From a virus: a stretch of DNA of 42,893 nucleotides. Location of the stretch: IMG/VR virus record IMGVR_UViG_3300037424_002455, positions 1 through 42,893 of that record; one strand, 5' to 3'. The notes under the pieces are model-generated. The model had not been told where the DNA came from, ran no database searches, and worked only from the letters and a program-made list of their open reading frames with translations. Below, piece after piece: positions 5,948-42,893 of this stretch. The stretch's first letter is position 1. Every line of letters starts with the position of its first letter. The position numbers were made by a program, and so were the translations under genes.

Positions 5948-5964
5948 TTTGCACTCTCCTAAAA

Positions 5965-5999
5965 GCTAATCGCTAAAAGCTAAGAGCTGATAGCTAAAT
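5965..5999. repeat. Tandem heptanucleotide array (GCTNANN x5)
   Basis: gctaatc gctaaaa gctaaga gctgata gctaaat read directly. Spans the terL stop and the capsid-gene leader. Confidence 0.85.
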
Positions 6000-7563
6000 C
6001 GAATAATTGCTCCGCACTCACCACAACCGCCTCACTGCTTGCGGTCTTACCGGTGCCGCTCACGTTATCGGCGATCATCTGATTTCCACCGCTCACTGAA
6101 TCAATCTGGTCATCGTGCCCTTTGGGGAAACCCACAGCCTCACGCTTAAATGTCAAATTCCAGGCACCTCGCACCAAATGCACCATCTTCTGTTTGGCGC
6201 GCAACCGCCATGATTGTGCCCATTGCGTTTTATCTCCTTCATCACTACTGCGTGTCATTTCGGTGATAGCGATCTTCGCCAAAGCCTTATCAGCCATAAA
6301 TTGCTTCACCACCAACGATTGAAAGGCATTCCCTTCAATGCCCCAGATCACACCATGCTCTTCATCCCTAAGCATCAATGCCTTCAGACTTCCCAAAAAC
6401 AGATCCAGATTACGTTCTCTCAACATGTCGCGGATATAAAGATCACCTCTCGTATCCATTGCCACTGCCCCGGTCGCATTGAAATCACTTTGTTGGGTCT
6501 TGCCCAATGCCAAGTCTACATAGCGATACCACTGTAAACTTTCCGGCGCACGCGGTATTACGTCAAAGTCGTCTTCATCGAAGAAATTACCGCTGGCGAG
6601 TTTGGGCATCTGTTGAAATTGCGCCTCGAATTCAAACTCATCCATGTTGGCTTTTTTGATTTTCAGAGCCTGTACATCGTGCTTGTGTTCCCACAGCGGT
6701 TCACCGGGGGCGCGTCCTAATTGATCGCCGTTCATTGGCAGGAAGACACCGCCCAATAAATTCTCAACATACTCTTCGTGTGTCTGCGGATATTCCTTTT
6801 CATCCGGTGCGATCGCAGGCATAAAGACAACATCCCATTCGTCCGCATCTTCATCTGACTCCATAGCATTCAAAAGCCGCCCTGAAAGGTCTTCCACATC
6901 CCAGCGCGTTTGAATCACAATGATCGCACCATGATCTTCCAAACGTGTATAAGCTGTGGACTTGTACCATTCGTATTGGTCGTCACTGATCGTCTCGGAA
7001 CTCGCTTCCTTTCGACCCTTGACCGGATCATCAATGATCAATAGATTCGCCCCGAACCCTGTGATACCGCCACCCACGCCCGCGGCTTGCATACCGCCCA
7101 TGCGGTCCGCGATATCCCATGAAGCCGATGCTTTACTTTCAGCATCCAGTTCCACTGGCTCATTCGTGGACGATAATTCACCGAACACCTGCGAATATTC
7201 TTCCGATTGGATCATGTCACGGACTGCCTTTGAATGTTTACTGGCAAGATCCGCATTATAGGATGTCAAAATTATTCGTAGATCTGGGTTCTTGCCCATC
7301 AACCAGGCAGGGAACTTGCGTGAGGCGGTCTGGCTTTTCCAATAACGCGGGGGCATGAACACCATCAAACGGGGGATGCCTTCCTTGCCGCCTGAAAGGA
7401 TGTACTTCGCAACCTGCTCCAACTTGTGCGCCAAAAACTGCACATGTTTTTCCTCGACCGGATGTTTACGGTCCACATGTTTGCAAAAGGATAGGAAGTC
7501 ACGCTCCGCCATGAGACGGTTCTTGATCTCCTGCTTGATCAAATCACGCGGATTACTCGACAT
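5980..7563 (-). CDS. terL: Terminase large subunit
   Basis: LMVFMPPRYWKSQ (Walker A-like PPRxGKS variant), LLIIDDP (Walker B) and a C-terminal nuclease-like region. 527 aa, directly upstream of head genes. Confidence 0.85.
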   Translation of the reverse strand: MSSNPRDLIKQEIKNRLMAERDFLSFCKHVDRKHPVEEKHVQFLAHKLEQVAKYILSGGKEGIPRLMVFMPPRYWKSQTASRKFPAWLMGKNPDLRIILTSYNADLASKHSKAVRDMIQSEEYSQVFGELSSTNEPVELDAESKASASWDIADRMGGMQAAGVGGGITGFGANLLIIDDPVKGRKEASSETISDDQYEWYKSTAYTRLEDHGAIIVIQTRWDVEDLSGRLLNAMESDEDADEWDVVFMPAIAPDEKEYPQTHEEYVENLLGGVFLPMNGDQLGRAPGEPLWEHKHDVQALKIKKANMDEFEFEAQFQQMPKLASGNFFDEDDFDVIPRAPESLQWYRYVDLALGKTQQSDFNATGAVAMDTRGDLYIRDMLRERNLDLFLGSLKALMLRDEEHGVIWGIEGNAFQSLVVKQFMADKALAKIAITEMTRSSDEGDKTQWAQSWRLRAKQKMVHLVRGAWNLTFKREAVGFPKGHDDQIDSVSGGNQMIADNVSGTGKTASSEAVVVSAEQLFDLAISS

Positions 7564-8278
7564 TCTCTTCCTCGCTCCCCTCTCCCTCAGGAGAGGGGAT
7601 GGGGGTGAGGTCGGAATCTTCCAACTCCTCCTCCAGCTCCTTCATCATCGTCAGTGCATCCGGTCCCAGCAACTCGATCAGATCCGCCGTGGTTTTCTTC
7701 TTCAGCTCGCCCAACACCTTGCGCCCAACCGTGGACCCTGAGTCGCCTTCGATCTTCTGGCGCGGTGTGTAATCTTTCGTCATCTCGAAGAAGAGACGCC
7801 GATCTGGGTTGGCACGGTAGCTGGGATCGGAGGCAACCGTCCCCAGGGCATGGAACGCACCCGGACGATATTCCAACATCGATTCAGCCTGCAACTGCGA
7901 GATCATCATGTCGATCTCTGGATATTTCTTGCGCCACGTGGCGATAGCACGGTCAGAAGTGAGACCGAGATATTCTTTCGCAAGGTTTTCCTGCGTGTCT
8001 GGGTAACGGAATTTCTTGGGCATCGTCGCCCAGGCGATATATGCCGCAATGCGCGGACGGACATTTGCATTCAATAAATTCTGATATACATCCGCCCAGG
8101 ACGGGATCTCCTCGCTTGCATCGATGACATTGTTTTCCACGAGAGTTTTACGAAAGAGGATTTCACGTGCCCGCACATCGGCAACGGAAAGCAAAACCTT
8201 CGCATCGGCTTCCTCAGCCAGCTCGATACCAAGCGCAAAATTTTCCAATTCCAACTGCGTAACTCGTTTGATGCTCAT
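7553..8278 (-). CDS. terS: Putative terminase small subunit
   Basis: Start at MSIKRVTQ with a GGAGAAGG RBS. Its 3' end overlaps the terL start by 11 nt. Call is by position. Confidence 0.55.
   Translation of the reverse strand: MSIKRVTQLELENFALGIELAEEADAKVLLSVADVRAREILFRKTLVENNVIDASEEIPSWADVYQNLLNANVRPRIAAYIAWATMPKKFRYPDTQENLAKEYLGLTSDRAIATWRKKYPEIDMMISQLQAESMLEYRPGAFHALGTVASDPSYRANPDRRLFFEMTKDYTPRQKIEGDSGSTVGRKVLGELKKKTTADLIELLGPDALTMMKELEEELEDSDLTPIPSPEGEGSEEENVE
7577..7610. repeat. GC hairpin element copy 1 (cccctctcc-N4-ggagagggg + gggggtgagg)
   Basis: Read directly. Lies inside the terS 3' end, where it encodes ...TPIPSPEGEGS... Confidence 0.85.
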
Positions 8279-10786: not shown

Positions 10787-10809
10787 TTCAAATCTCCTTT
10801 TTGATAATC

Positions 10810-10837
10810 GCTCATAGCTATCAGCTAAAAGCTACTT
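10810..10837. repeat. Tandem heptanucleotide array (GCTNNNN x4)
   Basis: gctcata gctatca gctaaaa gctactt read directly. Confidence 0.8.
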
Positions 10838-10958: not shown

Positions 10959-10982
10959 GGGTACTTGACGCGCCCCCTAACA

Positions 10983-11003
10983 GCTAAAAGCCAACAGCTA
11001 AAA
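10983..11003. repeat. Heptanucleotide array, left half (interrupted by the IS-like insertion)
   Basis: gctaaaa gccaaca gctaaaa. Phase continues at 12034 once the insertion and one TSD copy are removed. Confidence 0.8.
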
Positions 11004-11012
11004 GATAGGGAC

Positions 11013-11958: not shown

Positions 11959-12033
11959 GGTTGGAGAACACCAGTTTTTATGCCAATTTAGGAGGCTCAG
12001 GTGAGATATGTATATAAGTCCCAAAAGATAATA

Positions 12034-12054
12034 GCTAATCGCTAATAGCTAAAA
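12034..12054. repeat. Heptanucleotide array, right half
   Basis: gctaatc gctaata gctaaaa read directly. Confidence 0.8.
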
Positions 12055-12863
12055 GCCCTCACCACCACCGGCACCCACATCAACACCACAACCCCCAACA
12101 ACTCCAACGGACTATCCAACAAATACACCAACACCGCGCTCCACGTAAACTGCAACACATACGGAGCCAGCAACGGGCTCGAAGCCATCGCCAGCCGCGC
12201 ATTCCCCTTGCGGATCGCCCTCACCAAAACCACCCACCCCAACGCCATCCCATACCACCCCAGGCTCGTATTATCAACGCTCCACGCCAAAGTCTGCCCG
12301 AAGCGCAAAACCCAAACCCCATACACAACAAAAGAAACCAGCGTCAAAACCGTCACCGGCAAAAACGTCCTCACCATCGCCCAAAACCCCCGCTCGTTCC
12401 AGATACACACAAACCAGAAAACACCCAACCCAACCCCCACCTGAGGCTTCACCGCCAGCAAGACCAACCCCCACTGCGGCGGCAGCACCAACCCCAACAA
12501 CGGCATCCACTCGATATTCCCATTATTCAAACAACCTACCACAGCCGCCGAACACAAGAACAACACCAGCGTCCACCGCCTCGCCCCCAACTGAAAAGCC
12601 GTAAACGCAAACGCACACAACCCCACCACGAACATCCCAGCCCGCCCCACCTCCAACGGCAACAAAGCCAGCGGCACCAACGGCAACACCGCCCACGGAG
12701 CCGCATAATAGATCTCCACCGAAAACGGGCTCTCACCACTCCACACAGCCAGAGCCGCAGGTCGATACGTATTCTGCCAGTCCACCCCCACCGGCAAAAC
12801 GAACACCATCGCAACAAAAGCGATAATGAAAAGTACCACCAAAACGACCTGCTTCACGCCCAT
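12042..12863 (-). CDS. Polytopic membrane protein, DUF2029 / GT-C-like glycosyltransferase (putative)
   Basis: 273 aa with about 8 TM segments. The N-terminal pattern DWQNTYRPAALAVWSGESPF...YYAAPWAVLPLVPL and ...LLAVKPQVG resemble the GT87/DUF2029 family. Confidence 0.55.
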   Translation of the reverse strand: MGVKQVVLVVLFIIAFVAMVFVLPVGVDWQNTYRPAALAVWSGESPFSVEIYYAAPWAVLPLVPLALLPLEVGRAGMFVVGLCAFAFTAFQLGARRWTLVLFLCSAAVVGCLNNGNIEWMPLLGLVLPPQWGLVLLAVKPQVGVGLGVFWFVCIWNERGFWAMVRTFLPVTVLTLVSFVVYGVWVLRFGQTLAWSVDNTSLGWYGMALGWVVLVRAIRKGNARLAMASSPLLAPYVLQFTWSAVLVYLLDSPLELLGVVVLMWVPVVVRAFSY

Positions 12864-13204
12864 TAGATTCTCGCCCGGTTAGCCTTTCTCTGCACCTTCC
12901 GCACGCGACCCTTCGCCACCCGAGCCTGCAACTGCACCAACTGCTCCTGCCTCAGCCCCAATATCAACTCTGCCAACGCCTCAACGCTGATATCCCAGAA
13001 AGACACATGATCACAACTCTCACAACGGATCGACACCTGCCCGATCAGCGGACCGAACACCTCCACCTCCGCAGGCACATCATTGCTCATATCGATCGAA
13101 TGTCTCAACATCATCAACGTCGGGCTATCCTGCTGATTCCATCGGATCATCCCCAACACCGCACCACACCTCTTATTCTGACAACGCCATTGCTTCTCTC
13201 TCAT
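12863..13204 (-). CDS. Zinc-ribbon protein, hypothetical
   Basis: Start at MREKQWRCQNKRCG with ATGA overlap. Second Cys pair at CESCDH. Confidence 0.5.
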   Translation of the reverse strand: MREKQWRCQNKRCGAVLGMIRWNQQDSPTLMMLRHSIDMSNDVPAEVEVFGPLIGQVSIRCESCDHVSFWDISVEALAELILGLRQEQLVQLQARVAKGRVRKVQRKANRARI

Positions 13205-13686
13205 GATATGCCTCCAACCAAAACACACCGATCCAAAGCCCAATCCGCCTCCAACAACACCAACCCCTCTCCCCCCATCGCGCTAACAGCTAACTGCTGA
13301 CCGCTAATCGCTTCCCTCGGCAACCTCCTCATAAACACATACCCCGCCCTCCGATGCGTCTGCACAAAAAACCACTCAGCCAAAAACTCGATCACCTCAC
13401 TCACCCGAAACCCCTCCTCCGGCACCAACCGCCAAACCGCCAGCCTGCGAAACTTCCCCTCGCGACAAGCCGCAAACGGAAACTCCACCACCTCCCGCAC
13501 CGGATACACCACCTCCCCATAAAACAAACCCAGCGCGGACGTGGGATAACACCTCACAACCTCCAACCCACGCGCCGCCCCCGGCAAAAACCGCCGCATC
13601 CGCGCCACACTCACCGGAGCATCCGAAACCACCCTCACCTCCCGCATCCCATCCTCACTGATCGAATTACGAACTATCTCTTCCAT
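13201..13686 (-). CDS. Hypothetical protein
   Basis: 161 aa, ATG start, coupled to its neighbours. Contains an in-frame heptamer array (AISGQQLAVSA). Confidence 0.5.
   Translation of the reverse strand: MEEIVRNSISEDGMREVRVVSDAPVSVARMRRFLPGAARGLEVVRCYPTSALGLFYGEVVYPVREVVEFPFAACREGKFRRLAVWRLVPEEGFRVSEVIEFLAEWFFVQTHRRAGYVFMRRLPREAISGQQLAVSAMGGEGLVLLEADWALDRCVLVGGIS
13282..13316. repeat. Tandem heptanucleotide array (GCTNANN x5) inside a coding region
   Basis: gctaaca gctaact gctgacc gctaatc gcttccc read directly. Confidence 0.8.
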
Positions 13687-14303: not shown

Positions 14304-14724
14304 GATGTACCTCCACGTGTTCCCCTCTCCCATCGGGAGAGGGGTTAGGGGTAAGGGAAACATCCCTCCAATAAATCATCTCCAACTCAAACTCCAACAC
14401 CTCAGGCGGATACAGCTTGAAAAACTCGAAAAACTCCATGTGATTGGAAAACCCATCCCGCACCGCCAAACGCAAAGTCTCATCCAAAGACAACATCCTG
14501 CCATTCAAAACCACCCGCCCCAACTTCGGATAGATCTTCACCGGAACCACAGACGTACAAACCGCATCCATGATCAACCTGCACTTCTTCGTCCGCATTC
14601 CCGTATACAGCCAAAGCAATTGACCAGGCTTAGTCGGGTTCTTCCTCATCCTGCGGATCGTATGCACCTTCGCCCCCTCCTCGATCAACTTCACAAACTG
14701 CACCTTAAAACTATAAGCTGGCAT
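14293..14724 (-). CDS. ASCH-domain-like protein
   Basis: N-terminal FKVQFVKLIEEGAKVHTIRR fits the ASCH/PUA-like pattern. The C-terminus reads through GC hairpin element copy 2. Confidence 0.5.
   Translation of the reverse strand: MPAYSFKVQFVKLIEEGAKVHTIRRMRKNPTKPGQLLWLYTGMRTKKCRLIMDAVCTSVVPVKIYPKLGRVVLNGRMLSLDETLRLAVRDGFSNHMEFFEFFKLYPPEVLEFELEMIYWRDVSLTPNPSPDGRGEHVEVHHET
14322..14357. repeat. GC hairpin element copy 2
   Basis: cccctctccc atc gggagagggg ttaggggtaaggg read directly. Confidence 0.85.
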
Positions 14725-15328: not shown

Positions 15329-15447
15329 AACTACTCCCCTCCCCCACACGTGAGGGCTGCCCATCCAAACCACCTGTCCGAACGCACGCAAAATACTTGG
15401 CGGTTAAGAATAGGTTTTCATTCTTGACGGTTAAGAATTCAACCTGC

Positions 15448-15497
15448 TCCCCTCTCCCAGCGGGAGAGGCTGCCGAAGGCGTGGGGGTGAGGGAGAG
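15448..15497. repeat. GC hairpin element copy 3 (variant)
   Basis: tcccctctccc agc gggagagg ctgccgaaggcgtgggggtgagggagag. Intergenic. Confidence 0.8.
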
Positions 15498-15795: not shown

Positions 15796-16773
15796 TTATT
15801 TCTTCATCACACTCAACTTCCACAACCCGCGGGCAATCGCCAGCACCGTGTCATCCGGCACCCACGCCTTATGCGCGAACTGCACAGTCAACGCATCCCG
15901 CAACAACAACGCCCCGCCGCCCACGATCAGCACCTTCGCAAAACGCCGGTGACTCATCCCCCACACCTTCTCGATCTCACCGTTCACCTCGCGGCTCCAC
16001 ACTGGCATGGCAGTCTTCAACTCAGCCTTCATCAAACCCGCACGGATCTTCGCATCCAACTCCCCCAGGCTGAACAAATTATCCCGGTTCATCAACTCCA
16101 ACAGACGGCGCACACCCAGCGTATTCCCGCGTGTGAAACGTTCCACTGCCCCGCGCTCCTTCACCACCAGCAACTCCACGGTGTTGAAACCCACGCTGAT
16201 CACACCCACCTCATCCAGCAAAGCCGAACCGCGCTCACCGATCATCTGCCCGCGGTGATCCAGCACATAATCGAACAACGCACCCACCGGTTGTGAAGTT
16301 TGTTTTACATCCTCCACCTCCACAGTGTGCGTCATCCCATCCACCTCGAACACATGCGATCCCTTCAACCAATTCTTCACACCCTTCTGATAATCCTTCG
16401 CCGAATCGCCAGTCATCATCTGCAATGGCAAACCCACCATCAGCGACAGCGGCTCATCGAACGGACCATGCTCAGCCTGGTACTGTGCCAAAGCCGCATA
16501 CAACAACACACGCATCTCCGGCGCACCTGTCAACCGGTCAAAATCCAAATTCTCAACCGGGCGCCCATGCTCATGCGCCCCATCCCCCACATAGAATGAA
16601 CCGAACTCCCCGCTCACCAACATCGGACGCCTGCGGTTCTTCAACCCCAGGATCCCATCCGAAAGATGACCATGACCGTTACTCGCCACCTGGCTCACCA
16701 ACTGCCACCCCCCCGGCGAACTCCATAACTTCAAAGCCCCCATCCCCATATCGAAACCAAAATTGATAGACAT
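15796..16773 (-). CDS. parM: Actin-like segregation ATPase, ParM/Alp family
   Basis: FGFDMGMGALKL (phosphate 1), MVGLP, VISVGFNTVELLVV (phosphate 2) and LIVGGGA (adenosine). Strong AAGGAG RBS. Confidence 0.75.
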   Translation of the reverse strand: MSINFGFDMGMGALKLWSSPGGWQLVSQVASNGHGHLSDGILGLKNRRRPMLVSGEFGSFYVGDGAHEHGRPVENLDFDRLTGAPEMRVLLYAALAQYQAEHGPFDEPLSLMVGLPLQMMTGDSAKDYQKGVKNWLKGSHVFEVDGMTHTVEVEDVKQTSQPVGALFDYVLDHRGQMIGERGSALLDEVGVISVGFNTVELLVVKERGAVERFTRGNTLGVRRLLELMNRDNLFSLGELDAKIRAGLMKAELKTAMPVWSREVNGEIEKVWGMSHRRFAKVLIVGGGALLLRDALTVQFAHKAWVPDDTVLAIARGLWKLSVMKK

Positions 16774-18442: not shown

Positions 18443-18744
18443 TCACCTTCCTTTCCGCAAACACGGCACCTGGAAACTTGAAACTTGAAACCTGAAACTT
18501 CCGTACCCTTCAAGGGACGGACCCCACTCCAAACATCGTGACGACTCATCCCAAAACAACCCATGCAATACCTCTCCTCCATCTTCACAGAGACCGTCTG
18601 AAACCCGTTCCCTGGCTTATGCACCTGCCTCACCCCCCGCACCAGCTCAACAAACTGCAGGACAACCAAAGAAGTCTCATGAGAAGGAGAAGAAGACGCT
18701 TCCCCTCCCGAAAACTGGCTTCCACCGACAATATGGCTATGCAC
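18439..18744 (-). CDS. Hypothetical zinc-ribbon-like protein
   Basis: CMGC...CRVC pairs. GTG start. First ORF after the ori-like region. Confidence 0.4.
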   Translation of the reverse strand: MHSHIVGGSQFSGGEASSSPSHETSLVVLQFVELVRGVRQVHKPGNGFQTVSVKMEERYCMGCFGMSRHDVWSGVRPLKGTEVSGFKFQVSRCRVCGKEGE

Positions 18745-18779: not shown

Positions 18780-19110
18780 GGGGGTACCCCCCACAGGTGG
18801 ATAAAGTTGTCTGACAACAGTGAACGTTGATGTTCACTTAGTGAAGATCTCTGGCATGAGATCTTCACTATTGCCAGAACACTTATTCTAAAATTTTCTA
18901 TATATATATACTTACAAGATATAATGTTCACTTTGCTTCACTTTTCGATGCTTATCCGCAATTTTTGACCAAAAACGCCTCGCGCCGGGCTCATATGAGA
19001 CCCTAAAAAGCGCCGGTGAACGTCGGTGAACATCTTTTGGGGGTTTGAGACCCATAAAAAAAATTTTTTCACCAGTAGAAAGTGCCAAAAGATGTTCACC
19101 GTGCTTCACT
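18780..19110. other. Candidate origin of replication (iterons, inverted repeats, AT-rich tract)
   Basis: 11 copies of GTGAA/TTCAC cores, including the 19-bp unit atgttcacNNNgcttcac at 18924 and 19092 and inverted at 19015-19033. A 13-bp IR at 18839-18851/18858-18870. Tract tatatatata at 18901. Confidence 0.55.
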
Positions 19111-22467: not shown

Positions 22468-24087
22468 TCAGTTACCATTTCTAAACGTATCCATACAACG
22501 CTTGATAATCATTTCCATAACAGGTGGTGTGACAGCATTCCCGTATTGCTTCACCATCTCCCTCTTGGTTCCAAGAACAACATATGACTTGGGGAATGCC
22601 ATCGCCTTGCCTATCTCGTGTGGATGCAACATACGGAAGTAAAGGTCTTCAACGGTGAGACTATCTAGGGAATGGATCAGCGCAGCTCTATCAAGCCCTG
22701 TCACTGTATGGATTGGATCTCCCATGCCACTGGCTTGTGTTGTGCCGTAATAATAGGAAAGGAAAGAGCCTGCTGATAACACTGCATGATGGCTCCCAGT
22801 CGATGTGACAAACATCAGGGGTTCATCAATCCCACGAGAGTGTGAGGTACCACGCATCTCAACGATAAAGGATGGATTGATCAAGCCAAATGATTTCTGA
22901 ATTTCAGGGGGGACGGTGAGAATCGATTGATTCCCACTGGTTGTCATTGTGCCGGTTGCTTCATCCAAACCACTGGGCATGAATTCAGGTTTGGCAGCTC
23001 CACCATTGTTTCTAGTTAGGAAACCAGCAACAATACCCAGTGTTTGAGCAGTTGTCTGCGTGGGGGTGGAATCTGCACTACTGGTGACATACTTTCCGTT
23101 GCCCTGGCTGTGTGCAGTCTCTACCATCCAAGGCAACACAACTGCATGACTTGCATCACCTGGTTGAGTTGGAAGTGGTTCACGATATGCGTCCTTGACA
23201 CGGCATTCTAGTCCGCTTGTGTAGCGACCGGTGACTATCATGACCTGCCTGCCGTATTGCTCAAGCCCATATTCAATCCGGGCAAGGGTTTTTGGTTTTA
23301 GTGGAGTTTTGCGATCTCCAATCCGTTTTGCTTCGATGGTCCAATCAATAGCGTTGAATGCGGCAAAGTGGTATGGAGTTACTTGATCATGACACGTTGG
23401 GCATCGATAATAATATTGAGATTTATATCTTCCCCACTTTGTTCTGCGCTTCCACGTCTGGATCGTCTCGACATCACCACCGCATTTCATACAGTGAGCG
23501 ACAGGGCGAAAATCGAGATCTGGCTTGCGATTCCCTCTCTTCCAGAAGACAACATAAATTCGGTCACGGCTCTGTGGAGTTGGGAATGCAAACATGGAAT
23601 TGAAGTAAACAACTTCATGTTCATAACCCAGTGCGTGCATTGCACTCAGCCAGGCATCCCACATACGCCACTTGACAGCATCTACAACGTTCTCGGTGAT
23701 GATGATGTTGTAATCATGGTATTCTGCAAAGCGTGGAACATCCCACATGGTGGCACGGCTGCGCTCTTCGGATGGATCTATCAACACATCACCGAATAGG
23801 TTTTTCTCATAGTACCGGCGCGGCTTGCCTTTTGCCAACGAATGGTTTGTGCATTCGGGACTGGTGAGAAGAATATCCGTGGACGGATACTTGCGTGGGT
23901 TCACAGCAGAGATATCCGCGCAGTCATGATCAACTTTGGGGAAGTTGGTGTTGTGTGTCTCAATTGCCAGCTTCCAATGGTTCATCGCCAGGCGCACTTC
24001 TGCACCCGCCATTGTTGCACCAATTGAAGAGCCACCAGCCCCACAGAATTGATCTGTGAGCGTAATGAACGATCTCTTTCGTGCCAT
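22468..24087 (-). CDS. DNA (cytosine-5) methyltransferase with an internal Zn-ribbon insertion
   Basis: FCGAGGSS (motif I), SPECTNHS (motif IV PC), ITENV (motif VI) and QYGNAVTPPV (motif X). Insert carries CMKCGG...CPTCH. Confidence 0.85.
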   Translation of the reverse strand: MARKRSFITLTDQFCGAGGSSIGATMAGAEVRLAMNHWKLAIETHNTNFPKVDHDCADISAVNPRKYPSTDILLTSPECTNHSLAKGKPRRYYEKNLFGDVLIDPSEERSRATMWDVPRFAEYHDYNIIITENVVDAVKWRMWDAWLSAMHALGYEHEVVYFNSMFAFPTPQSRDRIYVVFWKRGNRKPDLDFRPVAHCMKCGGDVETIQTWKRRTKWGRYKSQYYYRCPTCHDQVTPYHFAAFNAIDWTIEAKRIGDRKTPLKPKTLARIEYGLEQYGRQVMIVTGRYTSGLECRVKDAYREPLPTQPGDASHAVVLPWMVETAHSQGNGKYVTSSADSTPTQTTAQTLGIVAGFLTRNNGGAAKPEFMPSGLDEATGTMTTSGNQSILTVPPEIQKSFGLINPSFIVEMRGTSHSRGIDEPLMFVTSTGSHHAVLSAGSFLSYYYGTTQASGMGDPIHTVTGLDRAALIHSLDSLTVEDLYFRMLHPHEIGKAMAFPKSYVVLGTKREMVKQYGNAVTPPVMEMIIKRCMDTFRNGN

Positions 24088-25019
24088 TACATTACTCCTT
24101 CAACAGCGGATTGGAGTTCTTGAATTGACGATCGCAGGTAGCGGCGGGTGGTTTCGATGGATTCGTGTCCGAGCAGGTCGCGGATGGTTTCGATGGGGGT
24201 TCCGTTGGCTTCGAGCCGTTTGGCGAAGGTGTAGCGGAGCCAGTGGCATGTAAGGTCAGGGACGCCGATCTGTGCGCCCAGGGATGAGATCTCTCGTTGG
24301 AGGGTGCGGACACAGATTTGGAAAAGGACGGTTGTTGTGGATGCAGGTCGAAGGTGGAGATGGGAGGCGAGGGCTTTGCGTCCGATCAGGTTGATGGGGA
24401 CTGTGCGTTCTTTATGTCCTTTTCCGTCGCGGACTATGACATATCCAGAGCGTTCGTTGATGGTGATATCTTCGGTGCATAGACTTGCGGCTTCGTCGAC
24501 GCGCAGTCCGTGGAGCATGATGAGGGTGGATGCCCAGGCTCGGACGGCGTTGTTGTATTCGAACAGGGTGACGGCTCGTTTGGTGTTTTGTTCGATGGCG
24601 TGGATGAGGCGGTGGTATTCGTCGTTTGTGAGGGCGCGGTGTTTGGTGGAGCCGCGTGAGCCGGTTTTGCCTTCGATATCGGTTATGAGTCCTGGATCGC
24701 CGATGTAGCTGGTGAGGTGTGTGAGCGCCCAGAGTCGGGAGTTCCATGTTGCGGCTTTGACCTTTTCCTGTTCGAGCGAATGTGCGCGGTAGAGGTGGAG
24801 GTCGTAGTTGGTGAGCAGGGATGGGATGAATGCCTGGTTGAATTTGTTTGTGTACCAGCCTGCAAAGACGCGGATGTGTTGCATGGCAAGTTTGATGCTG
24901 GCGGGGTCGAGCCGTGGTTTGCGGTTGAAGAGGTGGGTTTGGAGTTCCACGTGCCAGGTCACGTGTTGCAGGTCGGTTGCAGGGACGGTAAGAGGATGTT
25001 GAGTTGTATTGGTATTCAT
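24087..25019 (-). CDS. Tyrosine recombinase, XerC/D-like
   Basis: GLRVDE (Arg), GKGHKER (Lys), HWLRYTF (HxxR) and LLGHESIETTRRY (His, Tyr). Its stop shares a base with the methyltransferase ATG (TAATG). Confidence 0.85.
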   Translation of the reverse strand: MNTNTTQHPLTVPATDLQHVTWHVELQTHLFNRKPRLDPASIKLAMQHIRVFAGWYTNKFNQAFIPSLLTNYDLHLYRAHSLEQEKVKAATWNSRLWALTHLTSYIGDPGLITDIEGKTGSRGSTKHRALTNDEYHRLIHAIEQNTKRAVTLFEYNNAVRAWASTLIMLHGLRVDEAASLCTEDITINERSGYVIVRDGKGHKERTVPINLIGRKALASHLHLRPASTTTVLFQICVRTLQREISSLGAQIGVPDLTCHWLRYTFAKRLEANGTPIETIRDLLGHESIETTRRYLRSSIQELQSAVEGVM

Positions 25020-25031
25020 GTTGATTTTCCT

Positions 25032-25047
25032 AACGGGGCGCGAGATA
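25032..25047. repeat. Inverted repeat A, left copy (aacggggcgcgagata)
   Basis: Perfect 16-bp reverse complement of 25391-25406. Lies 12 nt upstream of the recombinase ATG. Confidence 0.95.
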
Positions 25048-25099
25048 AGCGGCGGGCGATGGGGCGGGTGCTTGCGTCACTCATCTCGTGCTCCACTAA

Positions 25100-25354
25100 T
25101 CAATCTTCGGTACGGAGAGTTTTAGGAGACTCTTCCGCCCCTTCCCCGACGGCTTCATCTCGTTGTTCGACGACGCGGGTCAAGGTACTGGACTTTGTAA
25201 TCATGTAATGAGCCAGTCGAGAACACTCTCCCGATAATTCAACGAGTCGGGCAATTGTCACGTCTGGCGGGACTGAATTATCCATAAAGAAGTTATTCAG
25301 TGCCTCTACCATTGCATTCCATAACATTTGATTTTTACTTAGATTTTCAGGCAT
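25100..25354 (-). CDS. Hypothetical 84-aa protein (enclosed by inverted repeat A)
   Basis: GAAAGGAAAA RBS and ATG start. Possible helix-turn-helix (TIARLVELSGECSRLAHYM). Confidence 0.55.
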   Translation of the reverse strand: MPENLSKNQMLWNAMVEALNNFFMDNSVPPDVTIARLVELSGECSRLAHYMITKSSTLTRVVEQRDEAVGEGAEESPKTLRTED

Positions 25355-25390
25355 GTCTTTTTTCCTTTCAGCTAGTCGAGCATCGAGATG

Positions 25391-25406
25391 TATCTCGCGC
25401 CCCGTT
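25391..25406. repeat. Inverted repeat A, right copy (tatctcgcgccccgtt)
   Basis: Perfect 16-bp partner of 25032-25047. Overlaps the left arm of hairpin 25402-25455. Confidence 0.95.
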
Positions 25407-25455
25407 CGACGACCAAGCCCCCCGCACTTTGGGGGAGCGCAGCGTCGTCGAACGG
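25402..25455. other. Compound stem-loop (12-bp outer stem plus inner C5/G5 stem)
   Basis: ccgttcgacgac ... gtcgtcgaacgg with inner ccccc gcacttt ggggg. Directly after the stop of ORF 25462-25800. No U-tract. Confidence 0.75.
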
Positions 25456-25461
25456 TTTGCG

Positions 25462-25800
25462 TTACTGGCGGGCGGCTTTGGAGCCGCCTTTGCCATTTAC
25501 AGACTTTGATTTTGCGCCACGTTTCGCCCGTCCAGTGGACACTGTGTTAGCTGGCTTCAAGGGGATGAAGTAAGCAAGGCAGGCACGAACCGAAACCATG
25601 CCGTTGTAATTCAGCTTGTAATCGAGAGAGATAAATTTAGGATTACCCTCGAAAACTTCCACTTTTGCGAACGGATCACCGACCTCTAAAACTTTTGCTT
25701 TGAATGTTCCCTTTCGGCTATCCCTAATTTCGTATAATTCACCGACAATCGGCGGAGTGCCTTTCGGCTTGCCTGCCACTACCCAAATATCTTCTGACAT
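25462..25800 (-). CDS. Hypothetical 112-aa protein with a beta-rich core and a lysine/glycine-rich basic tail
   Basis: Start at MSEDIWVV with a GAAAGG RBS; the longer ORF uses TTG. Tail reads RAKRGAKSKSVNGKGGSKAARQ. Confidence 0.55.
   Translation of the reverse strand: MSEDIWVVAGKPKGTPPIVGELYEIRDSRKGTFKAKVLEVGDPFAKVEVFEGNPKFISLDYKLNYNGMVSVRACLAYFIPLKPANTVSTGRAKRGAKSKSVNGKGGSKAARQ
25546..25558. repeat. Inverted repeat B, left copy (gttagctggcttc)
   Basis: Perfect 13-bp reverse complement of 25823-25835. Inside the 3' part of ORF 25462-25800. Confidence 0.95.
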
Positions 25801-25822
25801 ATTAGACCTTTCCGCTGGCAAG

Positions 25823-25835
25823 GAAGCCAGCTAAC
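25823..25835. repeat. Inverted repeat B, right copy (gaagccagctaac)
   Basis: Directly abuts the stop codon (25836-25838) of the IntI-like gene. Confidence 0.95.
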
Positions 25836-26822
25836 TCATGATTCAACAGCAGTGTGCTGTTTAATAACGGACTTTCCATCTAGCGGACTTACCACTCCGC
25901 TCCCCTTCATCGTCACGTGGGTATAGATCATTGTTGTTTTTACGTCCTTATGTCCAAGTAACTCCTGAATGGTGCGGATATCGTATCCATCTTGCAATAG
26001 CTTAGTGGCGAACGAATGACGAAATGTATGCGGACCAACATTCTTATGGATAGCCGCCTTCCCTACCGCTTTTTTGACTGCTTTTTGCACACTCGTTTCA
26101 TAGATATGATGTCTGCGTACATGACCGCTTCGTGGATCTGTTGAGAATTGACCAGCCGGAAATACATATTGCCAAGCCCACTCAAAAGGCGCATTTGGGT
26201 ATTTTCGATCCAGCGCAAATGGCAGTTCGACTTCACCGCGACCATCTGTGAGATCAATCGTATGCTGAGCCTTGACTTTGGCAATATGCAACATCAAAGC
26301 GGGGACTACAGATTCAGGCAGAACAGTCACCCTATCCCGGTTGGATTTCGTGTCCCTAAGTGTTATTGTTCGGTTTCCGAAATCGATATCCTTTACCCTC
26401 ACACGCAAACACTCCATCAAACGCAGACCAGCACCATACATCAACTGAGCCATGATCCGGTATTGACCGTTCAATTGTTCGATGACTCTCATTGCTTCTT
26501 CGTGGGTCAAAACGACAGGTAGCCACGTGGATTTCTTCGCGCGGACAATATCCAAACTGCCAAGATCAACTTCATATAATTTGTACAAAAACAATAATGC
26601 CGCTAATGCCTGGTTTTGCGTGGTTGCACTGACATGCAAATCAACTGCCAGGTGTGTCAAAAATCGTTTCACGCCTTCAGAGCCAGCTTCACGGGGATGG
26701 ATCGGCTTGATAAAATTTACATAGCGCTTGACCCAATGCAGATATGTTTTTTCTGTCTTATAGGCATAATGCCTGGTTCGCAAAGCATCCCGAACGGTGT
26801 CGAATAATCCTGCTTTTTTCAT
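25836..26822 (-). CDS. intI: Integron-type tyrosine integrase (IntI-like)
   Basis: Collinear with IntI1 as I recall it: [47 protein letters not shown], the IntI-specific insert [45 protein letters not shown] and [16 protein letters not shown]. Confidence 0.8.
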
Positions 26823-27355
26823 CGTGGCTCCACCTGGGAGATCTTGCGGTTCATGAATTGGTATTGGATTTCGACCGGGACGGTTTCTTCGTGGCGTGTG
26901 AAGGTGCCGCGCTGGTTGTTGGCTTTGGCATGTTCAACAAGTTTCTTGAGGGGTTTGAGGTTCTCGTCAAGGTCTGTGGATTTGATCAAGCCGTAGGCGA
27001 AGGTGGCGGATGCGCCGTTCTCGCGGAAGTTGTTTTGGATGCGCTGGCAGAGGAGGAGCGGGTCTGCGTGTTCGCCGGTGCGTTCGGTGACGATGACTGC
27101 GAATTCGTCGCCTGAGAGGATCTGTCCGATGACGTAATCAGTGGAACGGACAGAGATGGAGCGTTTGATCAGTTCGGAGGTTTCATCCCAGGAGCCGCGG
27201 CTGTTCAAGCCTTTCATATCGTCTATGTCGAAGAAGATGAGCCATACGGCACTGCCTGCGACTTTATCCCAGACTACGTGTTGGAATCCCTGCCGGGTGT
27301 AGCACCCGAGTTCTTTGTTCCATTTGAGCAGGTCGATCAGTTCTTGTGTTGTCAT
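26819..27355 (-). CDS. Stand-alone GGDEF-fold nucleotide cyclase-like protein (SGDEF variant)
   Basis: [13 protein letters not shown]...SGDEFAVIV...ATFAYGLI...HAKANNQRG is collinear with the GGDEF domain. Start at [10 protein letters not shown] with an AAAGGA RBS. Its stop overlaps the intI ATG (ATGA). Confidence 0.65.
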
Positions 27356-28624: not shown

Positions 28625-28688
28625 TGGTCACGTTTGTGACCATGTGACCATTATATACAGTGTGACCAATCTGTCAAGGGTTTGACCA
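28625..28688. promoter_or_regulatory. Operator cluster of the lysogeny switch (TGGTCAC / GTGACCA half-sites)
   Basis: tggtcac (28625) is inverted relative to gtgacca at 28636, 28644 and 28662 and ttgacca at 28682. Confidence 0.6.
28650..28677 (-). promoter_or_regulatory. Near-consensus early promoter (PR-like)
   Basis: On the minus strand: cccTTGACA, 16 nt, TATAAT. Operator half-sites lie in the spacer and just downstream of -10. Confidence 0.65.
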
Positions 28689-28689
28689 A

Positions 28690-29115
28690 ATGCAAAAGGT
28701 TACGGATATAATCCCCAAAATGGACGAAGAAAAAGCACATCAACTACTTGAAGATGCACTTGTTATCTGGAGATCAATTCAGACCAGAGCCAGGGAGAGC
28801 GTATCCCTTCAGAAGTTTGCAAACTACTTGGGTGTCAGTAAATCGCTTTTCATAGCATGGCAAAATAAAGAGAGATCCATGACCTATGAAAGCAGAAAAA
28901 TAATTGCTAAACCTATAGCTGATCTTGTTGGGAACTATGCTTATGAAGTATTGGAAGTCAATCCCCAAAATCCGTTTTTGCAAAGTATCATTTCCCGATT
29001 TGAAAACATCCCACCTGAGAAACAACAACAACTTGCCGATGAAGCCGAACAATATGAAGTGAAAAATGAGCGATCTAAGAAAGCACTTACAGAGCGAAAG
29101 ACTACACCGCGTTGA
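28690..29115 (+). CDS. HTH (XRE/CI-like) repressor candidate
   Basis: SLQKFANYLGVSKSLFIAWQNKERSMT looks like a helix-turn-helix. Divergent from the early operon. ATG lies 1 nt after the last operator half-site. Confidence 0.65.
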   Translation: MQKVTDIIPKMDEEKAHQLLEDALVIWRSIQTRARESVSLQKFANYLGVSKSLFIAWQNKERSMTYESRKIIAKPIADLVGNYAYEVLEVNPQNPFLQSIISRFENIPPEKQQQLADEAEQYEVKNERSKKALTERKTTPR

Positions 29116-29284: not shown

Positions 29285-29875
29285 ATGCCTTTTCGCTTTC
29301 GTAAAATATTTTCGTTGGGCAAGGGGATGCGGATCAATCTCAGCAAGGGCGGAGTCAGCACATCTGCAACCAGCAATGTCATCGTCATCGTTATTATCGG
29401 CGTCATCGTATTATGTCTCATCATCTTCTGTTGTATCGGTCTGTTATTTTGGAACACAGATACGGTCACTTCCACAGCCACACCGACAACCGCCATTATT
29501 GACGTTTCAACGATCATCATTCAAACTGCCAATGCCGCCATCATCCAAACAAGAGCGGCAAGTTCGCCCACACCGAACATCACCGCCACTACACTACCAA
29601 CGTTGACACAACCGGTGATCCCCACACCCATCACAATTCCGACGTCGGAAAATCCGGTCATCGTTCCCACCAACACGGTGATCTTCATTCTGCCAACTCT
29701 TCCCGCATCTTCAGGCGGCACATGTTCCTGTAATGCAGATACCTATAATTGCGGCGATTTTTCAAGTCAATCTCAAGCACAGTCTTGCTTCAATTCCTGT
29801 GTTTCCAGTGGCGCTGGAGATATTCATAATCTGGATGGTGATGGCAATGGGCTTGCCTGCGAGAGTTTGCCATAA
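29285..29875 (+). CDS. Membrane protein: DUF4236-like N-terminus, TM, Thr/Pro linker, Excalibur Ca-binding domain
   Basis: FRFRKIFSLGKGMRINLSKGG (DUF4236 pattern), one TM, and a C-terminal CGDF...NLDGDGNGLACESL (Excalibur DxDxDGxxCE). GGAAGGGGG RBS. Confidence 0.7.
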   Translation: MPFRFRKIFSLGKGMRINLSKGGVSTSATSNVIVIVIIGVIVLCLIIFCCIGLLFWNTDTVTSTATPTTAIIDVSTIIIQTANAAIIQTRAASSPTPNITATTLPTLTQPVIPTPITIPTSENPVIVPTNTVIFILPTLPASSGGTCSCNADTYNCGDFSSQSQAQSCFNSCVSSGAGDIHNLDGDGNGLACESLP

Positions 29876-31485
29876 TGAACCTACTCCCGCCACCATCCAC
29901 ACTTCTTCCCGGCTCCACGGTCTGGGCATACCTGCGCGATAGCGGCGGCGAAGGGCAGGACAGATCCATTGCGCGCCAGCTCGAATCCATTCAATCCTTC
30001 TGCAAGACCCACCAACTGCAACTCATCCACATCTTCAAGGACGAAGCCAAGAGCGGGACCACCACCGCCGGTCGTGACGACTTCCAACGTATGATCAACC
30101 TGTCTGACCGGGCAGAGAAAAAACCACACGGACTTTTGCTTTGGAGTTTTTCCCGATTTGGTCGAAATTTTGAAGACACACAATGGAACAAAGCCCGCAT
30201 ACGTCATAACGACATCATCATCCATTCACTGACCGACCCCATCCCCGATGGTCCCTACTCGCGCTTTGTCGAAACGGTCGTGGATATCTCCAACGAAGAA
30301 CGCTCACGACAAACCTCAGTGGATGCCAAGGACGGACTGCGCTCCATCGTCAGCCAGGGCGCGGTGCCCGGCACACCCCCACTCGGCTTTCGGCGCAAAC
30401 CGATCATCACCATCAATCCACGCACAGGCGAACCACGCAAAAATCATAGTTGGGTAATCGATAAACGCCTCGCCCCCAGAATACGCAAAGCTTTTGAAAT
30501 GCGGTCCGCTGGTTCCACCCTGCGCGAGATCCACAAATCCACACGGTTGTACGGCTCCATCAACTCCTACCGCACATTCTTCAACAACCGCATCTACATC
30601 GGCATCCTAGAATTCGGCGACATGGTCGTGGAAGAATACTGCGAAGCGCTCATCCCCATGAAAACATGGAACACCGTCCAAAAGAAACTCAAAGACACCG
30701 CACAAAAGAAATTCAAAGAGAAACATCCACGCCGCGCCAACTCGGTCTATTTGCTGAGCGGCATGGTCAAATGCGCCAGGTGCGGGTCCCCCATGAACGG
30801 CAACACCGTCAGCCGCGACACAAAGCATGGTAGAGATGAAGCCTACCGTTGTTCACGCGCCAAACGCCGCCTTGATTGTGACGCGGGGCGCATCACACGT
30901 CACAAACTCGAAGCGCTGGTACTCTCCACGCTCACCGACTACATCCTCATCCCCGAATCGCTCAGCGCCCAACAAGAGATCGCCATCCACAACCAGACCG
31001 AAGGCGAGATCGAGCACGGAGAAAAAAAATCCGTGCTCCACGGGGAACGCACGGAACTTTCACGGCAGATCGCAAACATCACCAAAGCCATTGCCGATAC
31101 GGGACATTCGGAAGCCTTATTGGACGCGCTCAAACAAAAGGAAACGCAACGCACCCAGGTGCGGACCGAACTCGACGAGCTCGACATCCCCATCCAGCGC
31201 GTCCCGCATCTCACCACGCCGGAAATTGAAGCCGCCTCCCAAGCCATCATCCAGGCTCTCAACAACTCCCCCCCCGAAACCCAACGCCAGATCCTGCGCG
31301 GCTTCGTCAGCGAAGTCACCGCAGAAAGGGATGGCAATATCATTCGTGGTATGATTACCTACTTCTACCCGCCCCCTTTTGACCCCGCCCCCACAGACCC
31401 GTTGCCTATAGAGTCTGCCCCTGTGGGGGCACATCTCTATAGACAACAATTCACTTATGCGTTTGAGGGGAAAATGAAATCATGA
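29875..31485 (+). CDS. Large serine recombinase (integrase)
   Basis: VWAYLRDSGGEGQDRSIARQ (catalytic Ser region), LLLWSFSRFGRN, a recombinase domain, the Zn ribbon CARCGSPMNG...YRCSRAKRRLDC and a coiled coil. 536 aa. Confidence 0.9.
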   Translation: MNLLPPPSTLLPGSTVWAYLRDSGGEGQDRSIARQLESIQSFCKTHQLQLIHIFKDEAKSGTTTAGRDDFQRMINLSDRAEKKPHGLLLWSFSRFGRNFEDTQWNKARIRHNDIIIHSLTDPIPDGPYSRFVETVVDISNEERSRQTSVDAKDGLRSIVSQGAVPGTPPLGFRRKPIITINPRTGEPRKNHSWVIDKRLAPRIRKAFEMRSAGSTLREIHKSTRLYGSINSYRTFFNNRIYIGILEFGDMVVEEYCEALIPMKTWNTVQKKLKDTAQKKFKEKHPRRANSVYLLSGMVKCARCGSPMNGNTVSRDTKHGRDEAYRCSRAKRRLDCDAGRITRHKLEALVLSTLTDYILIPESLSAQQEIAIHNQTEGEIEHGEKKSVLHGERTELSRQIANITKAIADTGHSEALLDALKQKETQRTQVRTELDELDIPIQRVPHLTTPEIEAASQAIIQALNNSPPETQRQILRGFVSEVTAERDGNIIRGMITYFYPPPFDPAPTDPLPIESAPVGAHLYRQQFTYAFEGKMKS

Positions 31486-40546: not shown

Positions 40547-40589
40547 CCCCCTCTCCTAAAGGAGAGGGGTTAGGGGTGAGGTAAGGGGG
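40547..40589. repeat. GC hairpin element copy 4
   Basis: ccccctctcc taaa ggagagggg ttaggggtgaggtaaggggg. Intergenic, directly after the major tail stop. Confidence 0.85.
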
Positions 40590-41862: not shown

Positions 41863-42893
41863 TTCAACCACTCCTCCAGCTTGTCACTGAACAGCCACAC
41901 CGCCAGATTGATCACCGCAGGTCGCAGGGATGTGGAAAGGTCCACGCCCAGGTCGGAAGCATACGCATCCATCTCAGCCCATTCCTGCTTCCCTTTCAAC
42001 CAGCCGTTCAACTGGCTTGTGAATTCCTTCTCCGGCATCAACACAGCGGTCTTGTAGCACAGGCATTCGGGGTGCAACGGCAGTTCTATCTCACCCACCT
42101 CATAAATGCCCTGTCCTTCACGCCCTGCCCCAACCACGTCATCACAGATGTCGGTCTCAGGATGCGCCTGGCTCAAATGGATCTGCTCTTCCTTCACCCA
42201 CGGCTGAGCCGCCATCATCCTGTCAGTGGCGAGATTGTGTATCTTCTGAATCTCGTTGCGCGCCAGCCTCAGCGCCTTATACGACACACCCTGACCGTTG
42301 CAATCGTCACCGCTCAACAGACCGGTCGTATCGCCGCCAGCGATCTGCGATTTTGTCCTGCCATACAGCCGTGTGGATGTCCAGCGCGGGCAATCTTCAT
42401 TTGCCCCAAGGAACTGCTCCAACTGTTTCGCAATATTGAAAGCCGAATCCCCTTTCTGGATGCCGTTCAGCAAGACAGCATTGATCCCGTCACGCGCCTC
42501 ACGGTCGATGCGGAAGACACGCCCCGAAAGGTTCATGTTGTCGCCATACAAATATTCGCCCGCCACCTGCAACAACAAATCCAACTGCGGCGTGAAGACA
42601 CCGTCAATGACGTTTTCGGTAAGCATCGCCTCGCTGACTGCTGACTGCTCACTGATCACTGTCTCCATCACCAACCGATCATGAAACACAGCCGTCACAC
42701 CAAAAGCGATCATGCCCGCCTCACGGCGCACGCGCAGGAATTCCTCTGTCCAGTCAGACCAGCTGTTCCCCCAGGCGGTTGTCAGGTCGCTTTGTGCAAG
42801 CAAGCCGGTCGAGCCATCCAACACGCCGTCCCTGCCTCCCCTCCGCAGTAAGATGGACTGTGCCTTGCCGGTGAACTCCAGCAACAACTCCTG
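41859..42893 (-). CDS. Head morphogenesis protein, Mu F / SPP1 gp7-like (3' part of the wrapped gene)
   Basis: C-terminal ...GEIELPLHPECLCYKTAV matches the HPxCxC signature I associate with the Phage_Mu_F domain. Follows the portal. Confidence 0.75.
   Translation of the reverse strand, partial: QELLLEFTGKAQSILLRRGGRDGVLDGSTGLLAQSDLTTAWGNSWSDWTEEFLRVRREAGMIAFGVTAVFHDRLVMETVISEQSAVSEAMLTENVIDGVFTPQLDLLLQVAGEYLYGDNMNLSGRVFRIDREARDGINAVLLNGIQKGDSAFNIAKQLEQFLGANEDCPRWTSTRLYGRTKSQIAGGDTTGLLSGDDCNGQGVSYKALRLARNEIQKIHNLATDRMMAAQPWVKEEQIHLSQAHPETDICDDVVGAGREGQGIYEVGEIELPLHPECLCYKTAVLMPEKEFTSQLNGWLKGKQEWAEMDAYASDLGVDLSTSLRPAVINLAVWLFSDKLEEWLK
42633..42660. repeat. Tandem heptanucleotide array inside the MuF coding region
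   Basis: gctgact gctgact gctcact gatcact, translated in frame as ..VISEQSAVSEA.. Confidence 0.8.
42767..42893. repeat. Terminal direct repeat, copy 2
   Basis: Identical to 1-127. Confidence 0.95.

Follow-up and report, generated by a model that had tools for sequence, protein, structure and literature searches.

Integrons are viewed as devices of bacterial chromosomes or plasmids. Their parts have so far been found on phages as captured fragments of a host Vibrio chromosomal integron, as a class 1 integron on a P1 phage-plasmid, and as attC clusters without intI (Qi et al. 2023, PMC9892861). Here we analyze the IMG/VR virus record IMGVR_UViG_3300037424_002455 over its full 42,893 nucleotides (the window) and describe a minus-strand locus, headed by the integron-integrase gene intI (25836-26822), that is very probably a small but complete integron resident in a temperate phage genome. 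Like known integrons (2016, PMC4889954), it has an integrase with the IntI-specific domain, an attC site with R''/L''/L'/R' elements and bulged bases, an array located 3' of intI on the same strand, and cassette boundaries at G|TT. It differs from them in residing in a phage and being embedded in an early operon, in an attI that overlaps coding sequence with its crossover right after the stop codon, in the very short arrays of its clade (1-6 sites), and in a second type of cassette with the open reading frame (ORF) inside the site. Analogous to the cases of Qi et al. 2023 (PMC9892861), intI and/or attC are carried on phage genomes, and some of those cases also have DNA methyltransferase ORFs nearby, but the IntI described here belongs to a dedicated lineage that recurs on many phage backbones and has a conserved attI of its own. 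Among cellular IntIs the closest, with 63% identity, come from an integron in a Chloroflexi metagenome-assembled genome (MAG; L012, JACRLC010000039.1) and from an Anaerolineales MAG (L013), where L numbers (L001-L189) denote the related loci compared with the window. These share with the phage integron the attC type GCCCAACACAGCGTGCA...GTAACGCAAACCGTTGGGC and co-orientation, whereas the phage clade forms a separate tight cluster (74-86% identity) and the Chloroflexi attCs are of a uniform 129 nt, typical of sedentary arrays. Judged on sequence, the locus displays all the testable defining features of an integron and belongs to that kind.

The assignment of the 328-amino acid (aa) intI product is consistent across profile, alignment and phylogeny. 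It matches the integron-integrase model TIGR02249 with 420.9 bits (cutoff 265) in a single stretch over residues 7-315, whereas the XerC (130.4 bits, cutoff 335) and XerD (124.7 bits, cutoff 330) models both remain far under cutoff. VchIntIA (PDB 2a3v) is collinear with the protein over residues 9-315 (282.6 bits, E 4e-83), and the alignment includes the IntI-specific segment, residues 204-239, which pairs gap-free with VchIntIA 206-241. The catalytic set is complete (R134, K159, H265, R268, H291, Y300), and W217, P230, H238 and H239 are conserved as the equivalents of VchIntIA W219, P232, H240 and H241, which we take to be the contacts to extrahelical bases; the equivalent of VchIntIA W157 is Arg. 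In a neighbor-joining tree whose root was set with Xer-like recombinases of these phages, outgroups that have no segment 204-239, the phage IntI nests inside IntI, beside the IntIs of Chloroflexi MAGs. These results identify the protein as a true integron integrase and bear out the original prediction, which had pointed to full-length collinearity with integron integrases and to the extra segment between the catalytic Lys region and HxxR. Searches of the protein against PHROGs gave generic 'integrase' matches only, and PADLOC gave no match. Long tblastn spans in seven relatives (L093, L107, L112, L116, L118, L126, L127) were considered as possible insertions inside intI and rejected, the IntI match being single and uninterrupted in all seven; in L093, L112 and L116 the extra span comes from a distinct tyrosine-recombinase gene immediately upstream, which matches weakly.

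The same prediction had reported no attI or attC and no cassette array, and had concluded that the context was not an integron. This part did not hold: an attC at 25447-25552 (minus strand), a cassette boundary after the intI stop and a second cassette-like unit reaching down to 25034 were found, so that a co-oriented array of two cassettes follows intI. The attC and the two cassettes likewise set the locus apart from an In0, in which intI stands without cassettes. A simple scan for NNNNAAC...GTTNNNN, the invariant AAC/GTT cores of RYYYAAC...GTTRRRY, combined with R''/R' complementarity and a good fold, yielded 11 candidates, compared with 5-14 in shuffled sequence, and overlooked the real site, because the distal half of R' in an array stems from the neighboring cassette and need not match its own R''. 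When the sequences flanking close IntI homologues were compared, many loci proved to share short conserved blocks downstream of intI, and these match in type the four-site array beside the 63%-identical IntI of the Chloroflexi MAG. A covariance model (R1) was built from 30 attCs of other loci, with the window and its twin contigs left out. The aligned sites have the classic attC anatomy, with R'' (nnnnAAC), a spacer, an L'' stem bulged on one side, a variable loop, L', a spacer and R' (GTTnnnn). The inner helix (helix 2) of this alignment is 93.6% paired, with compensatory changes in 13 of 17 pairs; none of 500 shuffles equaled this pairing and covariation, and slid controls collapsed. Searched over the whole window with filters off, R1 gave a single match, the 106-nt attC at 25447-25552 (R'' AGCTAAC, 25552-25546; R' GTTCGAC, 25453-25447), with 63.9 bits (E 2.4e-15); the runner-up in the window reached 9 bits. 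The site lies 284 nt from intI, within 4 kb. Co-oriented arrays 3' of intI, and attCs whose R' is unlike their own R'', are thus easily missed by eye or by simple pattern scans.

The boundaries of the first cassette can be read to the base. In a circular cassette the R' and R'' halves pair, and once the cassette is inserted the TTnnnn half becomes its left end. The intI stop codon TGA (25838-25836) is directly followed by GTTAGCT, the exact reverse complement of the attC R'' AGCTAAC, and such complementarity marks a cassette that has entered at attI. The 7-mer after the intI stop matches the first R'' exactly in 16 of the 22 related loci that have a model-detected first attC, and successive sites in an array are related in the same way, with the R' of one reverse-complementary to the R'' of the following one, as seen for all six sites of L095 and in L009, L011, L012, L013 and L186. 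Cassette 1 (25453-25834, minus strand, 382 nt), delimited by boundary complementarity and by its copies elsewhere, is of the canonical type (TTAGCT...ORF...attC...G) and carries an ORF (25462-25800, minus strand) for 112 aa of no known family; PADLOC returned no match for the cassette ORFs. A copy with 85% nucleotide identity is present in L187 and L188 between two attCs, with homology beginning exactly at GTT, and its own R'' AGCCAAC fits its own left boundary GTTGGCT. The gene is also found in L189, as an ordinary phage gene without attC. These comparisons indicate that cassette 1 is mobile across loci.

The attI region overlaps the 3' end of intI (25829-25866, minus strand), with the crossover GTT at 25835-25833 and GTTAGCT at 25835-25829. 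In 36 of 38 loci of the clade intI ends in ...GCTGTTGAATCATGA|GTT, and the sequences diverge immediately after GTT; the conserved end, also given as ...GAATCATGA|GTT, is common to the phage-like contigs of the clade, with variable first cassettes. Per-base conservation drops from 1.0 at GTT to ~0.4 from +4. Over 30 non-redundant intI genes, conservation of the third codon position is 0.92 in the last ten codons, compared with 0.46-0.73 in the other ten-codon bins and ~0.57 gene-wide. Third-position conservation near the stop therefore suggests that the DNA itself is constrained over the final ~30 nt of intI, up to the crossover. A conserved intI end is what an attI overlapping coding sequence would produce, and points to such a site here. 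Many metagenome contigs with a close intI end 20-130 nt past its stop (for example L104, L105, L108, L113, L114, L119, L121, L122 and L123, among L103-L128), which fits assemblies breaking off where the cassette array varies.

The window intI and attC are co-oriented on the minus strand, with attC downstream of intI. Co-oriented intI and array form the known 'inverted integron-integrase' arrangement (PMC4889954), and the window locus has this arrangement. Orientation is also consistent among the related loci, where all but 4 of 77 attC matches are on the intI strand (the exceptions being L187 3816-3923, L039, L023 and L145/L146). In intI-bearing relatives nearly all attCs are downstream of intI, and L011 has extra upstream sites on the same strand.

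Directly after the attC lies a second unit with a different layout. Cassette 2 (25034-25452, minus strand, 419 nt) is delimited from sequence and from the same architecture in relatives, and consists of TTCGAC, a short hairpin, R''-L'' (GTCGAAC GGGGCGCGAGAT, 25410-25392), a leader, an ORF, L' (ATCTCGCGCCCC, 25046-25035) and the G of the GTT at 25034-25032. Read onward from the GTT of attC (25453-25451), the order is CGACGAC, the short hairpin, GTCGTCGAAC, GGGGCGCGAGAT and the leader with a ribosome-binding site. The ORF (25100-25354, minus strand) encodes 84 aa of no known family, and its N-terminal part has 46% identity to a cassette ORF of L006. Cassette 2 opens with the junction hairpin GTTCGACGAC...GTCGTCGAAC (25404-25453, minus strand), which is conserved in L006, L101, L126, L128 and L100; the 76-nt stretch that contains it (25385-25460), folded as single-stranded DNA, has a z of -3.4 on the minus and -4.0 on the plus strand. 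We considered a terminator or an unrelated palindrome for this hairpin and rejected both, as there is no T-run and its arms are the left-boundary R' and the R'' of the same cassette. The architecture recurs in L006 (three junctions), L126 (two), L143, L128, L101 and L100. To the left of the same GTT plus hairpin, three contexts occur: the intI stop (L006, L126, L128, L101), a canonical attC (the window, L100) and the ATCTCGCGCCCC block (L006, L126). Three left contexts at one GTT are the pattern expected from recombination there. The 12-nt L'' and L' blocks are complementary across 300-400 nt and covary (GAGAT/ATCTC, GGGAT/ATCCC, and GGGCGAGCG/CGCTCGCCC with AAT/ATT). Less securely than for cassette 1, these observations suggest that cassette 2 is a cassette with its ORF inside the recombination site, between L'' and L'.

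The setting of the locus suggests how such an integron could be expressed. A consensus sigma-70-type promoter, TTGACA-16-TATAAT (28650-28677, minus strand; 12/12 matches in a pattern scan), heads the early operon and sits in a divergent region adjoining a probable repressor gene. The operon continues with three small genes, a gene for a GGDEF-fold protein, intI, the cassettes, a second tyrosine recombinase, a C5 methyltransferase and primase. The location of intI in the phage early operon had been correctly anticipated. A pattern scan detected no terminator-like site on the minus strand from the promoter to the array; of a dedicated cassette promoter Pc or a regulated PintI, the pattern scan, the only search run, identified none. 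The promoter also faces a divergent gene for 141 aa (28690-29115, plus strand), and the region resembles a phage immunity/early switch region.

We propose the following mechanism for the locus. The module would comprise an intact intI, an attI overlapping its last ~30 nt with the crossover G|TT immediately past the stop codon, and two co-oriented cassettes, one canonical (the 112-aa ORF plus the 106-nt attC) and one of the type with the ORF between R''-L'' and L'-R'. IntI and the promoterless cassettes would be expressed by read-through from the early promoter upon induction or infection, and phage DNA replicating at that stage would supply the single strands for attC folding. By analogy with the established integron mechanism, IntI would excise cassettes through attC x attC recombination and insert them at attI. 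The outcome would be that co-infecting or resident phages and integrons swap small accessory genes, and the methyltransferase cargo of relatives would provide anti-restriction functions.

The recombinases of the phage have to be considered together. The second tyrosine recombinase (rec#2; 24087-25019, minus strand) follows directly after the array and is Xer-like, without the IntI segment. Its homologues lie directly upstream of intI with a stop/start overlap in several relatives (L093 7182-8171, L112 7518-8438, L126 7563-8474), and in L186 a Xer-like recombinase (1300-2220) is followed by an intI remnant and then by six attCs; a Xer-like recombinase thus appears as a constant neighbor of the integron. 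A serine integrase is encoded at 29875-31485 (plus strand), as had been noted before. IntI descends from Xer-type recombinases. This ancestry leaves room for a reading in which IntI serves the phage itself, in dimer resolution or in integration and excision at the hairpin site, and the attC-like sites are by-products. The phage encodes a ParM-like actin, so that a plasmid-like state needing dimer resolution is conceivable, and intI would be expressed with the replication genes. However, the phage is already equipped with a serine integrase and with a Xer-like recombinase distinct from IntI, and in boundary rule, array structure and cassette mobility the locus exactly follows integron cassette recombination. 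We therefore rate such a service to the phage as very improbable. With this ParM/actin-like protein (ALP_N, MreB-like_C; 15796-16773, minus strand) alongside the serine integrase, a plasmid-like segregation stage is possible.

IntIs that are 74-86% identical recur in many phage-like contigs. A protein database search returned 8000 IntI homologues, the best 120 of which are distinct 90% clusters at 76-85% identity. Among 185,579 species-representative genomes, one contig reached 76% IntI identity and the next was at 63% (Chloroflexi). The close homologues lie in phage or prophage regions with differing backbones. For example, intI is found between helicase/RNase T genes and a Dam-type methylase in L008, and between replication genes and HNH-TerL-portal in L009/L010; in L093, L112 and L126 the order is serine recombinase (seen in L126), Xer-like recombinase, intI, array and primase (seen in L093 and L112). 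Close IntIs are also present in IMG/VR contigs (L091-L095, L101). The arrays of relatives have 1-6 attCs, and their identifiable cargo consists mainly of DNA methyltransferases, of the C5 (L008, L009, L011), MT-A70 (L095) and N6_N4 (L120) types. Whole methyltransferase genes occur as cassettes (L009 11950-12743, L120 5262-6507, L095 10018-10706, L011 11525-12749), and their 3' end often extends into attC. Small CxxCxGxG zinc-finger proteins are also among the cargo; several attCs (L009 11532-11662, L095 9158-9288) encode part of a CxxCxGxG zinc-finger peptide within the site. The L006 backbone is 93% identical to the window, yet its cassettes are different. Cassette turnover on alike backbones, together with decayed intI copies, implies that the module is gained, used and lost.

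This distribution bears on the possibility that intI and its neighbors are an inert fragment of a host chromosomal integron, carried along by imprecise prophage excision and without a phage function. Such captures are documented in Vibrio anguillarum phages (Qi et al. 2023, PMC9892861), and decayed copies do occur in relatives: the intI of L006/L110 has an internal deletion that removes the Tyr box, and in L186 only the 45 N-terminal codons remain, ahead of six attCs. An inert fragment is difficult to reconcile, however, with a window intI that is intact and keeps all catalytic residues, with more than 100 distinct 90%-identity clusters at 76-85% identity across different phage backbones, with a single copy above 64% identity in the 185,579 species genomes, and with a conserved attI end followed by variable first cassettes, which indicates ongoing use. 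On this evidence we regard the inert fragment as unlikely and favor a resident and potentially active integron. Several points weigh against that choice. The decay seen in L006/L110 and L186 means that the window module could be inactive as well. Its attC is somewhat degenerate, with GTGT for GCGT, and scores 64 bits compared with 80-108 for the best sites. Model R1 fails to detect sites of the second type, which have neither the unpaired spacer nor the extrahelical bases of a canonical attC, and the case for cassette 2 as a substrate of IntI is drawn from junction comparisons. The phage assignment of short metagenome contigs is indirect, and integron function in general is deduced from sequence comparison rather than from directly observed recombination.

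Taken together, the comparisons raise a broader hypothesis, namely that this integron lineage is native to temperate phages and is not merely captured on occasion. An IntI clade (74-86% identical, with hundreds of metagenome variants) that moves between unrelated backbones, with its attI fused to the intI stop and driven by the early operon, would be the phages' own device for swapping anti-restriction methyltransferases and small counter-defense genes, and would have a second cassette architecture with the ORF inside the site. In its full extent we judge this hypothesis to be evenly poised between right and wrong. A literature search for a phage-native integron lineage yielded Qi et al. 2023 (PMC9892861) alone, and no description of a dedicated IntI clade over phage backbones, a stop-codon-fused attI, operon-embedded co-oriented mini-arrays with methyltransferase cargo, or the second cassette architecture. 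If the hypothesis is true, phages reshuffle accessory and anti-restriction genes through site-specific cassette exchange, and cassettes would have an additional, direct path from phages to bacterial integrons and back.

Upstream of intI, a stand-alone protein of 178 aa (26819-27355, minus strand) overlaps the integrase gene by 4 nt (ATGA), as originally described. A start at an in-frame ATG further upstream (27445) would extend it to 208 aa; gene callers and homologues favor 178. The GGDEF fold proposed for this protein is supported by profile search, homologue alignment and an AF2 model. The protein has no Pfam match, and its NCBIfam GGDEF matches are sub-threshold (TIGR00254 16.9 bits, cutoff 37.4); a profile of 22 homologues searched against the PDB, in contrast, finds diguanylate cyclases (DosC, E 6e-10). 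The AF2 model has a mean confidence (pLDDT) of 87.7, and its top 50 PDB matches are all GGDEF domains with TM scores of about 0.6, the best being the Geobacter Hypr GGDEF 6D9M (E 5e-9). The previously noted motifs, SGDEF at residues 81-85 and RGSWDETS, are both present. D43, N51, S81-G82-D83-E84-F85, K144 and R149 are invariant in the 22 homologues, and the metal- and phosphate-binding residues of GGDEF cyclases are present when PleD and DosC are mapped by profile alignment. The gene probably encodes a nucleotide cyclase. An earlier suggestion of a link to mCpol/Cas10 Palm enzymes or to defense was not borne out, as neither mCpol nor Cas10 Palm appears among the top 50 structural matches and PADLOC was empty for this protein; PHROGs returned two unknown families only.

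The position of the guanine-recognizing Asp (PleD D344, GacA position 348) may offer a clue to specificity. The window subgroup has Ser there and other subgroups have Asn or Asp, with the alignment of this helix uncertain (S60 or S55). Ser together with G-D-E-F is the published Hypr signature of enzymes that also accept ATP (PMC6456294). The phage protein resembles the Hypr enzyme GacA (PDB 6D9M; PMC6456294) in its structural match, in Ser for the guanine-recognizing Asp and in the G-D-E-F motif; it differs in having no receiver or sensor domain, in SGDEF rather than GGDEF, in a remodeled GH..GD helix, in an identity of 22% and in scores below family cutoffs. Hypr GGDEFs are cGAMP-making enzymes, and the window protein shares with them the Ser, in addition to its invariant SGDEF. 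Because the alignment of the Ser helix is uncertain, Hypr-like specificity is a lead and not a result. The family has 32 members of 160-205 aa and is a recurrent early-operon gene of temperate phages, in a layout of serine integrase, helix-turn-helix repressor and divergent early operon. A stand-alone cyclase family with Ser and SGDEF in phage early operons would be a testable lead on phage manipulation of cyclic-dinucleotide signaling.

The overlap of the two genes had been read as a specific coupling of IntI to the GGDEF-fold protein. In this explanation the pair would be functional, with a signaling nucleotide controlling or controlled by recombination, and no cassettes would be involved. 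The ATGA overlap is found in the window and in L005 and is retained in L006, but the pairing is restricted to this one lineage. Elsewhere the GGDEF-like gene occurs without intI and precedes other genes (L007, L001-4, L183-4), or is split from a decayed intI by other genes (L185-6): its 3' neighbors are a membrane protein in L007, small ORFs in L001-4, small ORFs and ParB in L183/4, and small ORFs and a Xer-like recombinase in L185/6. Conversely, close IntI homologues follow unrelated upstream genes in L008, L009, L093, L112 and L126. With these differing neighbors on both sides, and with cassettes present, a functional pair is the least credible of the explanations considered, to the point of being almost negligible. 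The ATGA overlap can be treated as an incidental property of one lineage, and gene-order comparison indicates that it reflects tight operon packing, with no conserved functional pair. The GGDEF-fold gene belongs to the phage backbone and lies outside the integron.

The remainder of the window is that of a phage. Bases 1-127 are repeated at 42767-42893 as an identical 127-nt terminal direct repeat, which marks a circularly assembled phage genome with a size of ~42,766 bp. Sequencing run SRR12684511 contains this phage too. Besides the serine integrase and the ParM-like actin, it encodes portal, large terminase (TerL), prohead protease, adaptor and primase. A megablast search of the 20-32 kb region of the window against GenBank phages, and an Rfam search of the window, returned no match. 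The gap that separates the ORFs with ends at 18744 and 19106 contains a 76-nt palindrome (19025-19100), whose 19-bp stem (GGTGAACATCTTTTGG...CCAAAAGATGTTCACC) is perfect and which could be an origin or a terminator. Repeats with a 7-nt period (TAAAAGCTAATCGCTAAAAGC) are present at 5960-6001, 10805-10832, 10978-11005, 12029-12056 and 13284-13311. A small palindromic repeat, CCCCTCTCCCATCGGGAGAGGGGTTAGGGGTRAGG, occurs in the window at 14312-14359, 15439-15492, 40561-40584 and 7590-7613, and in L021 at 558-591 and 13037-13070; it resembles one that occurs twice in the chromosome of Cyanobacteria bacterium LVE1205-1, which may hint at the host.

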